From a virus, in the UHGV virus genome UHGV-0094578: 31,822 nt of DNA; one strand, given 5' to 3'. Below are positions 23,512 through 27,033 of the stretch, one piece after another. The notes below the pieces were generated by a model. That model made no database searches. It was not told the DNA's origin and saw nothing but the letters and a program-made list of their open reading frames with translations. Every line of letters starts with the position of its first letter. Position 1 is the stretch's first letter. A program made the position numbers and the translations under genes.

Positions 23512-24098
23512 TGACTTTTAAAATGAGTGAAACGGATCAAACAGTTACCGTTTATAACCTGCGTTCTGACACGAATGAATTTATTGGGTTGGGTGACGCT
23601 TTTATACCTGCGCATACCGGACTGCCAGCCAACTGCACCACAATAAAACCACCGGTAATAAAAGCGGGGTTTGTGGCAATTTTTGATTCAGAGAAGCAAA
23701 AATGGGTTTCTCGTGAGGAGCATCGTGGTGAGGTGTTGTTTGATACAGAAAACGGTAATGAGCTGGTGATCACCGAACCAGGCGCTTATCCGGAAAGGAC
23801 AACCACGTTAGCACCAGCTAATGCCTGGCAAAAATGGAATGGTAAGGCGTGGGTGGATGATGCGGAGGCCATGCGAATTGCATTAGTCAGCGAGGCAGAT
23901 GCCGAAAAGAAAAGACTGTTTAAACAGGCCAGTGACGCCATTGCCACACTGCAGGATGCCATTGATTTAGATATGGCGACTGAAGAAGAAGAGTTGTCTC
24001 TTACTGCATGGAAAAAATACCGCGTTTTACTGAACCGTATTCAACCGGAAGATGTGCCAGAAATTGTGTGGCCGGAGATACCTGGAAATGTGGCGTGA
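23511..24098 (+). CDS. tfa: tail fiber assembly protein (Tfa family)
   Basis: N-terminus MTFKMSE...VYNLRSDTNEFIGLGDAFIPAHTGLPAN and C-terminal AWKKYRVLLNRI closely parallel lambda/E. coli Tfa proteins as I recall them. Confidence 0.85.
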   Translation: MTFKMSETDQTVTVYNLRSDTNEFIGLGDAFIPAHTGLPANCTTIKPPVIKAGFVAIFDSEKQKWVSREEHRGEVLFDTENGNELVITEPGAYPERTTTLAPANAWQKWNGKAWVDDAEAMRIALVSEADAEKKRLFKQASDAIATLQDAIDLDMATEEEELSLTAWKKYRVLLNRIQPEDVPEIVWPEIPGNVA

Positions 24099-24813
24099 AG
24101 CACGTCTGGCCTTCACGGATTCTGTTGCTGCGCTGCACTGTTCGATAGTCCCTGCGCATCCGTGGATTTATGGGCTGGGACAGCAGACAGCGAACGGGGC
24201 ATATCTCAGCCCGGTTAATGCCGTTCGCTATCTTGCTGAACGCCTGTCCGGAACTGGGGGGAATGCGGACGTGGTGATTATGATGGTCACTGGACAGACG
24301 CAGGAAAACTTTATGACCAGCCTGAATAACCTGGCCGGGATTTTCCCTGCCCCGGCATTCACGCAGGTCAAACGGCTGGTGCAATCCGCCGCAGCGCTGG
24401 CTATTGAAAAGATGCAGATCCCGGCGAAAGCCGCCGCAGCGTTACCTGCGTCCATTCCACTGTCTGTACCAACCAGCAGGGCAGCTTTATCTGCTGCGGC
24501 AATCAGCCAGGCACAAAAGGCGGCGGGTGCCGGGTTTGATATCGAAGGGCTGAAAAAACAGCTGGGCGAGTTCACGCAGCTGCGTGACCAGCTTATCAGT
24601 GATGTGGCCAGCGGCCTGAATGATTTACAAGGTAAAAGTGCCAGAGTATGGGTTTTTACTGCCAGCGGAGACACCGGCACCTCGTTACTGGAATTGGTGA
24701 AGGACATTCCGCAGCAGTCTGCCGTTTACACCGCAGCCATGATGCTGGTTGGCGATAATCTTGATGGAATAAAGGGAATGATTCATGACTTCGATCCCGA
24801 CACTGGCGCTTAA
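24088..24813 (+). CDS. hypothetical tail-module protein with Ala-rich low-complexity core
   Basis: ATG 24088 after GGAG, overlapping the tfa 3' end; phage-like composition. Confidence 0.5.
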   Translation: MWREARLAFTDSVAALHCSIVPAHPWIYGLGQQTANGAYLSPVNAVRYLAERLSGTGGNADVVIMMVTGQTQENFMTSLNNLAGIFPAPAFTQVKRLVQSAAALAIEKMQIPAKAAAALPASIPLSVPTSRAALSAAAISQAQKAAGAGFDIEGLKKQLGEFTQLRDQLISDVASGLNDLQGKSARVWVFTASGDTGTSLLELVKDIPQQSAVYTAAMMLVGDNLDGIKGMIHDFDPDTGA

Positions 24814-25330
24814 TGGCGAGGCCATCCAGCTGAAAAACATGCGGGTGACTGTTTCACAGCAATTTCAGGATAAAGATCAGTCCGGCCAGACCAGTGCCAC
24901 AACAAAATCAGAGCAGGGAGCAAAGGGAAAGGAACTGCGGATCAGCGGTGAAATACCTTTTAAACAGCCTGAAGTACTAAAGCGTATTTTTGAGCTGGCC
25001 AGTACTACTGATGCCAGTGGTAATCGTCAGAAATATCGCGTGGTGCATGAAGTTGCCCGTGCTGTTAACTTTCGTGAAGCAACGTTCAGCGGAACGGTGG
25101 ATGCACCCCAGCAGGACGGGAAGATGTCCTGGTTGGTGACATTCACACTGGTGGAACATATCAGCGTGCAGGAAAAGCAAGAGGCCAGGGCAACAGGTAA
25201 GACGACCGCAAAAAAACAGACTGCCGGTAGTGCGGGACAGTCCGGTGGCCAGTCTGCCGGAGAAGATGAAGAAAAACTGACGTGGTTTGAACGCAAGGTA
25301 CTGAAGCCCGTCAATGATGCTTTGGGTTAA
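24785..25330 (+). CDS. hypothetical tail-module protein (181 aa)
   Basis: AAGGGA Shine-Dalgarno; overlaps both neighbours. Confidence 0.5.
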   Translation: MTSIPTLALNGEAIQLKNMRVTVSQQFQDKDQSGQTSATTKSEQGAKGKELRISGEIPFKQPEVLKRIFELASTTDASGNRQKYRVVHEVARAVNFREATFSGTVDAPQQDGKMSWLVTFTLVEHISVQEKQEARATGKTTAKKQTAGSAGQSGGQSAGEDEEKLTWFERKVLKPVNDALG

Positions 25331-27033
25331 TGATGAAACCAGTAAAACGCCTATACCTTTCAACGGATGAAGTTCACCTGGTGGATGCCAGCCTGGTACT
25401 GGAGCTGAACAGCTGCGGCCGGGGCTTCATCACCGCAGAGACAACAACCGATTACACCGGAAAACTGGTGAGGCTGGATGTGGGGTATACCGATCTGCTT
25501 TTGCGCTGGTTTACGGGGTATGTGGAGCGATCGCAGCCCGCTGAAAACGGTTTTCAGCGTCTGTTCATTCGTGAGTTGGCAGGTGTGTTTGAAAGGATGT
25601 GGCCATGTTCGTTTCAACACCCGACTTTGCGTGAAATTGCGGTCTGGTTGGAAGAAAATAGCGGGATCACGGTCAATGTGACTGACGCACAGTACAGCGA
25701 TACCCCTATCCCACATTTTACCCATAACGGTACTGGTTATCAGTTGCTGAACAATCTGGGAAGGGCGTTCAGTATCCAGGATTACATCTGGTACCAGTTG
25801 CCTGATGGTTCGCTTTACGTCGGTGGCGCAGAAAAGTCATTGTTTGCCGGTCGCCCCGTAGAAATCCCGTCAGAGTTCAGCCAGGGAGCTGCTGGCGGTA
25901 ACTCTGTGACATTACCTGTGATCCAGACAATGCGGCCAGGGGTGGAAATGAACGGTGAGCGCGTGACTAAAGTTCACCTGACGAATGACACGATGGCGAT
26001 CACATGGACGCCGAGAAACCGCGCAACGGGTAAACCTTTGCAGAAAACACCGGCGCAACGGCAGATTGAAAGCCATTACCCGGAAATGGCATCCGGGCTT
26101 CATTTGCCAAAGACGGCCAGAGTCGTGGCGCACTCAGAGCCGGTAAAAAGCGGTAACTTTGCCGATCCCTTCCGGCCACGTTATGCCGTGGACGTGCAGC
26201 TGCTTGACGCAGACGGAAACCCGGACAATCAGACGCCTGTTTACTCAGCGGTGCCGTTGCCGGTACCGATGGCCGGGAATGATTCAGGCATGTTTCAGTT
26301 TCCGCCAGAAGGGACGCTGGTTGAGGTTGCATTCACGGGAGGCAGACCGGATAAACCATTTATCAGGCAGACGCTGCCAGATGGCACCAGCCTGCCGGAC
26401 GTTAAACCCGGTGAGCAATTGCAACAGCAGCGGGAAGAAGTTTCCCAGCGGGTGACTCAGGCTGGAGACTGGGTAAGACAGACCGATCAGACCATCAGCG
26501 AAACATCAATGGCGCGAACCGTAAAAGCCGATACGGAACAGCGCGAACTGGTCAGCCGTGAAACCACGGTGAAAGCTACGGATAAAACTACGGTACTGGG
26601 AACCGCCACATTGCTAGCCGGAGCCATCCAGCAGGTCAGCGCCGGTGATTATAGCCAGGCGGTGAAAGGTAACAGGCTGTCCAGTATTGAAGGAAACGAA
26701 GAAACGGACATAACAGGACGGCAGTCTACTAAAGTGGGTGGTGCTGTAGCCGTGGAAGTTGGCGAAAGCCTGACAGAGAAGATTGCCGCATTGCGTAAAT
26801 CAGTGGCCGCTGGAGGTCAGCAGGTCATGGGGGCAACTGTCCATATTGGCAGTGAGAGTATCAACGCCCTAACCATGATGCTGGACACCATTGATTTACT
26901 GGAAGAGCTGGCGCAGCAATGCGCGAGCCATTCGCACCCCTCCGTTGGGACGCCAACCAATGCCGCTGCGTTCACCCAGACAGGGACGAAAGCCGGGCAG
27001 ACCCGGGAAAAATATCAGGGGATTATTGCCTAA
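25330..27033 (+). CDS. putative baseplate hub / central spike protein (gpD/gpV-like, VgrG-like architecture)
   Basis: 567 aa; internal GTLVEVAFTGGRPDKPFI resembles the OB-fold motif of gpV/gp5-type spikes; last gene before the composition shift. Confidence 0.45.
   Translation: MMKPVKRLYLSTDEVHLVDASLVLELNSCGRGFITAETTTDYTGKLVRLDVGYTDLLLRWFTGYVERSQPAENGFQRLFIRELAGVFERMWPCSFQHPTLREIAVWLEENSGITVNVTDAQYSDTPIPHFTHNGTGYQLLNNLGRAFSIQDYIWYQLPDGSLYVGGAEKSLFAGRPVEIPSEFSQGAAGGNSVTLPVIQTMRPGVEMNGERVTKVHLTNDTMAITWTPRNRATGKPLQKTPAQRQIESHYPEMASGLHLPKTARVVAHSEPVKSGNFADPFRPRYAVDVQLLDADGNPDNQTPVYSAVPLPVPMAGNDSGMFQFPPEGTLVEVAFTGGRPDKPFIRQTLPDGTSLPDVKPGEQLQQQREEVSQRVTQAGDWVRQTDQTISETSMARTVKADTEQRELVSRETTVKATDKTTVLGTATLLAGAIQQVSAGDYSQAVKGNRLSSIEGNEETDITGRQSTKVGGAVAVEVGESLTEKIAALRKSVAAGGQQVMGATVHIGSESINALTMMLDTIDLLEELAQQCASHSHPSVGTPTNAAAFTQTGTKAGQTREKYQGIIA

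Follow-up and report, generated by a model that had tools for sequence, protein, structure and literature searches.

A conserved gene trio at the end of an HP1-like tail operon as the probable centre of a contractile-tail baseplate

Genes lying near the end of a P2-like prophage, where such phages carry cargo, may belong either to the virion or to the passengers. The UHGV virus genome UHGV-0094578, a DNA stretch of 31,822 nucleotides referred to here as the window, carries at this place three genes, named below X1, X2 and X3, and a preliminary description made from the sequence alone suspected that one of them might be non-structural cargo. The question is therefore whether these genes build the tail and, if so, which parts of it. 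We estimate at about 80% the probability that the trio closes the tail operon of a prophage of the HP1 subgroup (Peduoviridae) and encodes the centre of the contractile-tail baseplate.

Escherichia phage ESSI2_ev015 is about 95% identical in DNA to the window and shares its gene order. Judged by sequence, the window belongs with the ESSI-2-like prophages (Peduoviridae, Quadragintavirus) of the HP1 subgroup. All on the plus strand, X1 (24088..24813, 241 aa, first estimated at about 242), X2 (24785..25330, 181 aa) and X3 (25330..27033, 567 aa) follow the tail-fibre assembly gene (23511..24098, plus strand; Pfam Caudo_TAP, E 8e-35). They overlap tightly, as originally described: X1 shares 11 nt with the tail-fibre assembly gene and 29 nt with X2, and X2 in turn shares 1 nt with X3. 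The X1 frame is open from 24052 in the ORF listing, with the assigned ATG at 24088; this ATG (MWREARL...) is the correct start because the homologues start with MW, W2 hardly varies among them and a GGAG is located about 11 nt ahead of the codon. X1, X2 and X3 belong to the HP1 orf33 (phrog_1677), orf34 and orf35 families, respectively. In HP1 (Hpunavirus), K139, phiO18P, F108, ESSI-2 and ESSI2_ev015, the same three families occur in the same order and close the late operon, immediately behind the tail-fibre assembly gene. HP1 apart, homologues of the trio were found in K139, phiO18P, L9-1, YenM324, phi3 and ACA2, and its order is common to HP1-like phages of Haemophilus, Pasteurella, Vibrio, Aeromonas, Pseudomonas and enterobacteria. 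The proteins of ESSI2_ev015 are about 96-97% identical to those of the window, whose copy is an ordinary allele within the Quadragintavirus/ESSI-2 group, with no substantive difference. X1, X2 and X3 are genuine genes that form the conserved end of the HP1/ESSI-2-like tail operon.

The rest of the tail module comprises a gpW-like DUF2590 gene (19818-20165), J (20108-21346), I (21333-21926), the major tube gene (15846-16301, Pfam Phage_HP1_Orf24), and fibre, Tfa, sheath, chaperone and tape-measure genes. In this inventory there is no further hub, spike or initiator candidate beyond the trio, and no LysM protein. The order and overlaps of X1-X2-X3 are preserved in 74 of 80 related viral contigs, the other six being contig ends or decayed prophages. 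Median dN/dS values are 0.09 for X1, 0.07 for X2 and 0.06 for X3, as compared with 0.10 for the baseplate gene I, so that purifying selection on the trio is as strong as on gene I. The GC content of the three genes (0.51-0.53) matches that of the adjoining genes, and promoter-like or terminator-like sites within the trio do not exceed shuffled expectation. After 27033, GC falls to 0.36-0.40 and an acetyltransferase gene and a ParA-HEPN pair are found; the actual low-GC cargo slot of this phage is directly downstream of X3.

In P2, the centre of the baseplate is made up of the tube initiator gpU, the hub gpD, the iron-tipped spike gpV and the LysM "glue" protein gpX (bioRxiv 10.64898/2026.09.14.750843). 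The trio would share this functional inventory; the P2 baseplate genes follow the tape-measure gene, the trio the fibre genes. At the sequence level, the failure to match the trio to P2 U and D by eye was borne out by profile methods: nothing significant was obtained with hhalign when the X2 and X3 alignments were compared with single P2 gpU, gpD and gpV sequences, nor with hmmsearch when the X1, X2 and hub profiles were run against a six-frame translation of P2. A literature search on HP1 orf33-35, K139 orf37-39 and vB_YenM_324 yielded the ACA1/ACA2 paper (PMC10612066) and the P2 cryo-EM preprint only.

X3 is 40% identical to HP1 orf35 (E 1e-151) and matches the PHROG family phrog_2258, "baseplate protein", with an E-value of 1e-274. 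A gpV/gp5-like OB motif in its middle had suggested a VgrG-style fusion of hub and spike. Indeed, the probable core of an OB domain of the gpV/gp5/VgrG type is located at 26254..26364 (plus strand, residues 309-345). By Pfam, this assignment is marginal (Phage_base_V, E 1.1e-4, 22.9 bits for a cutoff of 23.8, over model positions 34-70 of 75 only), and it is supported by a match of residues 292-355 to the VgrG chain 6sjl_A (E 0.0028) and by the nature of the downstream region. There, a triple-stranded beta-helix like that of the T4 gp5 C-terminus (26566..26853, plus strand, residues 413-508) matches T4 gp5 chains of the PDB (phmmer, E 2e-7) as well as Pfam Gp5_C (20.8 bits, cutoff 20.4) and, weakly, Gp5_trimer_C. 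The spike homologue of ACA1 was matched to P2 gpV (3QR8) by published HHpred analysis (PMC10612066).

Beyond the beta-helix, a predicted helix (residues ~510-533) precedes the apex motif H534-S-H536 (26929..26937, plus strand). Both histidines are invariant in an alignment of homologues (A1), and an HxH apex is present in 10 of the 13 lineages examined. P2 gpV ends with ...LHTHKHPGDSGG and has HTHKH near its end. We liken the X3 motif to the HxH at the tip of P2 gpV, which we take to be iron-binding from the spike structures of P2 gpV and phi92 gp138; by this analogy, metal binding by X3 is putative. Like P2 gpV, the X3 spike combines a probable OB domain with a beta-helix and a terminal HxH motif; it differs from gpV by its long gp5-type beta-helix and by the helical segment before the HxH. 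In phages lacking X1 (see below), a 65-aa ORF after the spike gene was considered as a split-off apex, but it does not align and has no HxH.

The N-terminal part of X3 (residues 1-~237; 25330..26040, plus strand) is a candidate hub, or "spike-mounting", domain. In other HP1-like phages it occurs as a stand-alone protein of about 230 aa: seven phages (PV94, ACA2, phi3, yong1, SMHB1, 1.202.O and C5a) encode hub and spike in two neighbouring genes, while they are fused in HP1, K139, phiO18P and L9-1, as in X3. The fusion of gpD and gpV homologues in HP1 has been noted previously (PMC10612066). The many stand-alone database homologues of the X3 N-terminus, about 234 aa long, carry no Pfam domain, and seven members of the hub family searched against Pfam gave no match. 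When profiles of the trio were run against PDB sequences, the sole result was a sub-threshold one for the X3 N-terminus, the XkdQ hub chain 9g8s_q (E 0.25). A 34-sequence hub alignment compared by hhalign with an 8-sequence gpD profile was collinear (2-148 to 13-175) at a non-significant probability below 1%; the gpD profile was built from diverse homologues of a phage collection, seven of them fetched, the 80 gpD loci of viral contigs being all at least 98% identical to P2 and unusable. In ACA1, gp48 was assigned to P2 gpD by published HHpred analysis at 10% identity, and it was seen in virions by mass spectrometry (PMC10612066). The putative hub formed by residues 1-237 would be shorter (~235 aa) than the 387-aa hub of P2 and, unlike it, fused to the spike.

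The fusion suspected at the outset takes shape as a functional resemblance to VgrG. As in T4 gp27-gp5 and in the VgrG of type VI systems, the hub, the OB domain and a trimeric beta-helix needle would be carried by one chain. However, X3 has a hub part that is far shorter than gp27 and cannot be recognised from its sequence, and it has no lysozyme domain. The tip of X3 is the HxH motif rather than a PAAR-capped blunt end. Matches to the TIGR VgrG models are weak and local, with 16.6 bits vs. 121.8 for TIGR01646 and 15.1 vs. 186.35 for TIGR03361. X3 therefore resembles VgrG functionally but lies outside the VgrG family.

X2 is 40% identical to HP1 orf34 and matches Pfam PF25759 (HP1_ORF34, baseplate complex protein) with 182.9 bits (E 5.8e-54), for a curated gathering threshold of 27 bits, residues 6-181 aligning with model positions 2-176 of 180. 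The same domain is present in all 120 listed X2 homologues. The protein has the beta-sandwich fold of (Hcp-like) tail tubes. Its tube-fold core (residues 1-125) contains a conserved loop resembling a lumen hairpin (28-46); behind it come a linker of low complexity (129-162) and, at the C-terminus, a conserved helix (167-180). The phage hence has two tube-fold genes, the major tube gene and X2, and the latter lies beside the hub gene, an adjacency kept in 13 of 13 lineages examined. P2 gpU likewise has a tube fold, a gene adjoining that of the hub and a C-terminal helix on a tether (bioRxiv 10.64898/2026.09.14.750843). In sequence, X2 has no match to Pfam Phage_P2_GpU (PF06995) at E-values up to 0.1, and its alignment reaches a probability of 0.2% against a single P2 gpU in hhalign. 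The authors of the ACA1 study obtained for the X2 homologue an HHpred match to gpU at 15% identity, which they called uncertain, and did not detect this protein among virion proteins by mass spectrometry (PMC10612066). Identity of X2 to ripcord proteins and tube initiators (Pa193 gp38/gp39, Pam3 gp17, pyocin R2 PA0626, Bas63 gp018 and Mu gp43) is 9-13%, and X2 differs from the solved tube initiators in having no LysM or other C-terminal domain, just the linker and the short helix. We consider X2 to be the tail-tube initiator, with the role of P2 gpU and a predicted position, as a putative hexameric ring, between the hub trimer and the first ring of the tube.

X1, the Ala-rich member of the trio (16.2% overall, 33% in residues 88-150), matches phrog_1677 (E 2e-75) and HP1 orf33 (29% identity, E 2e-21). 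Its HMM has matches in HP1, K139, phi3, ACA2, YenM324, phiO18P and L9-1, in each case directly upstream of the X2 homologue, and even in distant genera, where identity falls to 25-29%, homologues keep this place. The predicted structure, an alpha/beta domain with a long helical hairpin, has a pLDDT of 91.6. The earlier impression that X1 has no obvious structural analogue was upheld: the model matches none of the solved baseplates and has no structural neighbour in BFVD, so that the fold, as modelled, corresponds to nothing solved. No LysM and no other Pfam domain were found, which sets X1 apart from the gpX family, and the family alignment shows no invariant catalytic-type residues. Repeated matches of residues 62-113 in long proteins concern TPR/CHAT proteins and stem from a spurious "NNLA" TPR motif. 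Clear structural homology to baseplate components, which for all three genes together would have contradicted the preliminary description, is found for X2 and the spike portion of X3 and not for X1; residues 1-237 of X3 are a putative hub.

Mass spectrometry of purified ACA1 virions found the X1 homologue, gp46, at a per-mass abundance close to that of gpW, gpJ and gpV; the detection comprises two spectra, and the preparation contained some cellular contaminants (PMC10612066). In the record of the Yersinia phage vB_YenM_324, the homologue is named "structural protein", a label given with no stated basis. One clade (PV94, 1.202.O, yong1, SMHB1 and C5a) has no X1 and retains X2, hub and spike; X1 is therefore not essential to this type of baseplate. 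A co-occurrence of X1 with the helix-HxH spike apex was ruled out, SMHB1 and C5a having the apex without X1. We regard X1 as a conserved, lineage-specific accessory virion protein, apparently of low copy number. With LysM proteins missing from the tail module, the "glue" role may fall to X1. That X1 is a baseplate component of unseen fold which replaces the LysM glue in the HP1 subgroup, linking the wedges to hub and tube initiator, is a tentative proposal to which we give clearly less than even odds.

Two other roles of X1 have to be weighed, with X2 and X3 unchanged in the first of them. X1 could serve the tail fibre, as another chaperone or as an adaptor between fibre and baseplate, rather than being a protein of the hub side. 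It directly follows the tail-fibre assembly gene with the 11-nt overlap, most of the X1-less clade (PV94, C5a, yong1 and 1.202.O) is also devoid of a recognisable Tfa gene, and a chaperone retained on the fibre could explain a low signal in virions. However, the correlation with Tfa amounts to one loss event in one clade, and the conserved linkage is the X1-X2 overlap, of 22-29 nt in 74 of 80 contigs, whereas Tfa is recognisable in 36 of 80. In ACA2, moreover, X1 adjoins X2, hub and spike, while a DGR cassette parts it from the fibre and antireceptor genes and the Caudo_TAP gene is absent. We judge a fibre-side function to be unlikely. Somewhat less probable still is that X1 acts in morphogenesis without being structural, for instance as a chaperone of baseplate or hub assembly, and would not be stoichiometric in the virion. 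A fold with no counterpart in solved baseplates, a related clade that does without the protein, a very low mass spectrometry signal and the lack of invariant catalytic-type residues would all fit; yet in ACA1 virions the spectral count relative to mass is the same as for the genuine baseplate proteins gpW, gpJ and gpV, other non-structural proteins were not detected there, and the vB_YenM_324 label, for what its unstated basis allows, goes the same way.

The cargo reading, in which one gene, most plausibly X1, is a lysogenic-conversion or defence moron at the end of the tail operon, draws on the position near the prophage end and on the absence of an annotated function, but is very improbable because of the conserved order in distant genera, a GC content like that of the neighbours and unlike that of the true cargo after 27033, overlaps on both sides, promoter-like and terminator-like sites no more frequent than by chance, a dN/dS of 0.09, the lack of any PADLOC match to defence families and the presence of an X1 homologue in ACA1 virions. 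No member of the trio looks like cargo; all three look like ordinary phage structural genes.

In the assembly that we favour, X3 would form a trimer whose N-terminal ~235 residues are the hub and whose remainder is the spike, with its OB domain, gp5-like beta-helix and HxH tip. Hub and spike would therefore be a single polypeptide, as opposed to the separate gpD and gpV of P2. X2, a paralogue of the tail tube, would form a ring on the hub from which the tube protein encoded at 15846-16301 polymerises, as with gpU in P2, and the wedges are the probable docking site of its conserved, flexibly tethered C-terminal helix. X1, presumably co-translated with X2 and X3 and present in few copies, would most likely sit at the periphery between hub and wedges, where it may stand in for gpX, the small LysM glue protein that P2 has and this phage lacks; P2, for its part, has no counterpart of X1.

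For annotation, the gain is that X2 can be described as a tube initiator and X3 as a hub-spike fusion, where the genes figure in databases as "hypothetical protein", "adenine glycosylase", "DNA-binding protein" or "head completion protein". More generally, the HP1 subgroup makes its minimal contractile baseplate from components whose sequences cannot be recognised from the P2 ones, and in which hub and spike are either fused or split. X1 stands for a small conserved family with a confident model and no structural neighbour, in a genome devoid of a LysM-type glue partner. If it does substitute for the glue, X1 would represent a non-homologous solution to a job filled by LysM proteins in P2, in pyocins and in extracellular contractile injection systems.

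The three genes X1 (24088-24813), X2 (24785-25330), and X3 (25330-27033) are encoded on the plus strand directly downstream of the tail-fibre assembly gene, with overlaps of 11 nt between this gene and X1, 29 nt between X1 and X2, and 1 nt between X2 and X3. The preliminary description of three tightly overlapping genes of 242, 181, and 567 aa agrees with the ORF table (241, 181, and 567 aa), and the protein that it called Ala-rich, X1, contains 16% Ala overall and 33% in residues 88-150. The ATG at 24088, preceded about 11 nt upstream by GGAG, is the correct start of X1, since homologues start with MW and W2 is nearly invariant. 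The GC content of the trio (0.51-0.56) is that of the remaining tail module, and its promoter-like and terminator-like matches show no excess over shuffled expectation.

From 24.0 to 27.1 kb, the window shares 95% DNA identity with Escherichia phages ESSI2_ev015, ev129, ev040, and ev239 (Peduoviridae, Quadragintavirus) and 71% with Cronobacter phage ESSI-2. Gene order agrees with that of ESSI2_ev015. By coordinate arithmetic, the window is shorter than ESSI2_ev015 by about 200 nt around 12970-13015. It apparently lacks a 65-aa gene annotated "L33", which lies in ESSI2_ev015 (14300-14497) between those of the small terminase and the head-tail adaptor. The tail module starts with a gpL-like adaptor, a gpR-like terminator, and a gpS-like protein, followed by the sheath (DUF2586) and the tube (Phage_HP1_Orf24), then by holin, endolysin, and spanins, an assembly chaperone and the tape-measure protein, DUF2590 (a sheath-initiator candidate), Baseplate_J, and Tail_P2_I, and ends with the tail fibre, the Caudo_TAP chaperone, and X1, X2, and X3. 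The arrangement in Haemophilus phage HP1 is identical and ends with orf33, orf34, and orf35, to which X1, X2, and X3 are 29% (E 2e-21), 40% (E 3e-38), and 40% (E 1e-151) identical, respectively. The trio also ends the late operon in K139, phiO18P, L9-1, vB_YenM_324, SI7, and F108. It is an HP1-type central baseplate module, in which X1 is an accessory protein of the orf33 family, X2 the tube initiator, and X3 a fusion of hub and spike; support is good for the assignments of X2 and of the X3 spike part.

In X3, residues 413-508 match T4 gp5 C-terminal beta-helix chains (E 2e-7, PDB sequences) and residues 292-355 a VgrG chain (E 0.003). The gpV/gp5-like OB motif first noticed in the middle of the protein finds support in this VgrG match, with Pfam Phage_base_V itself slightly below threshold at 309-345; Gp5_C is slightly above. 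The C-terminus carries a predicted helix and then an invariant H534-x-H536, reminiscent of the HTHKH of the P2 gpV tip. In the gpV and gp138 spike structures, tip histidines bind an iron ion. The N-terminal part of about 235 residues is a stand-alone gene, with the spike gene directly downstream, in PV94, yong1, 1.202.O, SMHB1, C5a, ACA2, and phi3, and the protein database holds many stand-alone homologues of about 234 aa devoid of Pfam domain. Published HHpred analysis of ACA1 and ACA2 assigns the hub gene to P2 gpD ("cell-puncturing device mounting domain") and the spike gene to gpV; both proteins were detected in virions, and the two counterparts are fused in HP1 (PMC10612066). With hhalign, the N-terminal domain aligns collinearly, at a non-significant level, with gpD, and an XkdQ hub chain scored E 0.25. 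Gene architecture and the published HHpred assignments point to a hub which, with the spike, would form one chain in X3, predicted to work like VgrG or the gp27-gp5 complex. A VgrG-like hub-spike fusion had been proposed at the outset; the fusion and the likeness stand. X3 itself falls outside the VgrG family, the TIGR models scoring far under their cutoffs.

X2 matches Pfam PF25759, "HP1 ORF34 baseplate complex protein", with 183 bits. It could not be matched to P2 U by eye and, likewise, Pfam search and hhalign against P2 gpU place it outside Phage_P2_GpU by sequence. In an AlphaFold2 model based on an alignment of 44 sequences, residues 1-125 form a beta-sandwich-plus-helix core (pLDDT >90). 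Loop 28-46 is of low confidence, yet contains many invariant residues (G34, T36, S37, T39, E43, G45, K47); we read it as the probable lumen hairpin of tube-family proteins, ordered only within the assembled ring. A low-complexity linker (129-162) leads to a conserved C-terminal helix (167-180) with invariant W167, F168, E169, K174, P175, N177, and L180. Because the major tube gene is separate and the X2 homologue adjoins the hub gene in all lineages examined, tube initiator, the role of P2 gpU, is the best reading of X2. The C-terminal helix of gpU touches the wedge triplex (P2 cryo-EM preprint, bioRxiv 10.64898/2026.09.14.750843), and the tethered X2 helix may by analogy do the same. In public records, X2 homologues are labelled "nucleoid DNA-binding protein" (Pseudomonas phage phi3), "adenine glycosylase", or "DNA-binding protein", and one X3 homologue is called "head completion protein"; erroneous labels of this kind propagate. 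The phi3 GenBank record also leaves the X1 homologue (about 2050-2965) and the hub gene (3504-4202) unannotated.

X1 could be placed in none of the Pfam, NCBIfam, and PADLOC families, phrog_1677 ("unknown function") being its sole family match. Among 1.84 billion representatives, searched exhaustively with HMMER, there were only 112 relatives, essentially all of 220-300 aa; the long proteins hit several times are TPR artefacts. The AlphaFold2 model (pLDDT 91.6; 51-sequence alignment, identity down to about 20%) contains N- and C-terminal strands, each with short flanking helices, and three long helices in between, the Ala-rich segment being the linker that joins the first two. It has no structural neighbours, as anticipated by the remark that the Ala-rich protein lacked an obvious analogue. 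Only L40, A45, and P208 are invariant, W2, S41, and N44 nearly so; the alignment contains no conserved nucleophile, and X1 is probably not an enzyme.

The behaviour of X1 is that of a morphogenetic gene. In 74 of 80 related viral contigs, it lies directly 5' of X2 with the reading frames overlapping, and the other six are contig ends or decayed prophages; its dN/dS is 0.09 vs. 0.10 for gpI. The homologues adjoin each other in HP1, K139, phiO18P, L9-1, YenM324, phi3, and ACA2. The ACA1 homologue, gp46, was found in purified virions with a per-mass spectral count like those of gpW, gpJ, and gpV, from only two spectra and a preparation with some cellular contamination (PMC10612066). X1 is nevertheless accessory rather than core, since one monophyletic clade (PV94, 1.202.O, yong1, SMHB1, C5a) is devoid of it and retains X2, hub, and spike. 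In PV94, yong1, and 1.202.O, the spike is short, with a Cys/His-rich tip (GGKGVCTGAxxCPFxGxPHxDxSTTVxAGK) and not an HxH apex, and downstream of its gene lies a conserved ORF of 65 aa and unknown function. Four IMG/VR contigs (L006, L027, L031, L056) have a full-length X3 homologue, no X1, and a truncated or missing X2, abutted in L031 by a gpJ N-terminal fragment; they look like decayed prophage remnants keeping the hub-spike gene.

No LysM protein was found in the window. When P2 baseplate roles are set against its genes, exactly one role, that of the LysM glue gpX, has no gene, and one virion-associated gene, X1, has no role; hence the tentative proposal that X1 might fill a glue-like role in place of gpX. 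X1 could instead be a fibre accessory, as it follows the fibre assembly gene; against this reading, in ACA2 a DGR cassette lies between its homologue (hhalign probability of match 96.9%) and the fibre gene. It could also be an assembly factor, a role to be weighed against the virion detection of gp46. Cargo, suspected within the trio by the preliminary description, is very unlikely for X1 and fits the region after X3 better.

Indeed, similarity to ESSI2_ev015 stops at the X3 stop codon, where GC drops to 0.36-0.40, and the low-GC variable region that starts there (27034-31822) looks like a prophage cargo slot; none of the complete E. coli genomes contains at least 80% of it. A non-coding stretch of about 196 nt (27945-28141) matches no tRNA or Rfam family. 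More than 400 E. coli chromosomes carry an unannotated counterpart of 91% identity, located some 150 nt beyond the X3 homologue, and the stretch may be a conserved phage end or attachment-site region. A ParA/AAA_31-type ATPase (30140-31171, plus strand, 343 aa) overlaps the gene of a HEPN (RiboL-PSP) protein (31158-31772, plus strand, 204 aa); the pair, whose only PADLOC match is a weak one to PDC-M28B, is a candidate cargo module of defence or toxin-like type. A hexapeptide acetyltransferase (27088-27684, minus strand, 198 aa) is followed by an unknown ORF of 199 aa and a Hexapep fragment (29255-29476, minus strand, 73 aa). ESSI2_ev015 also carries a "serine acetyltransferase", and E. coli EH09-18-41 has one at the equivalent position, with the X3 homologue on one side and host mntR on the other. 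The acetyltransferase after X3 may serve lysogenic conversion, for example by modifying O antigen.
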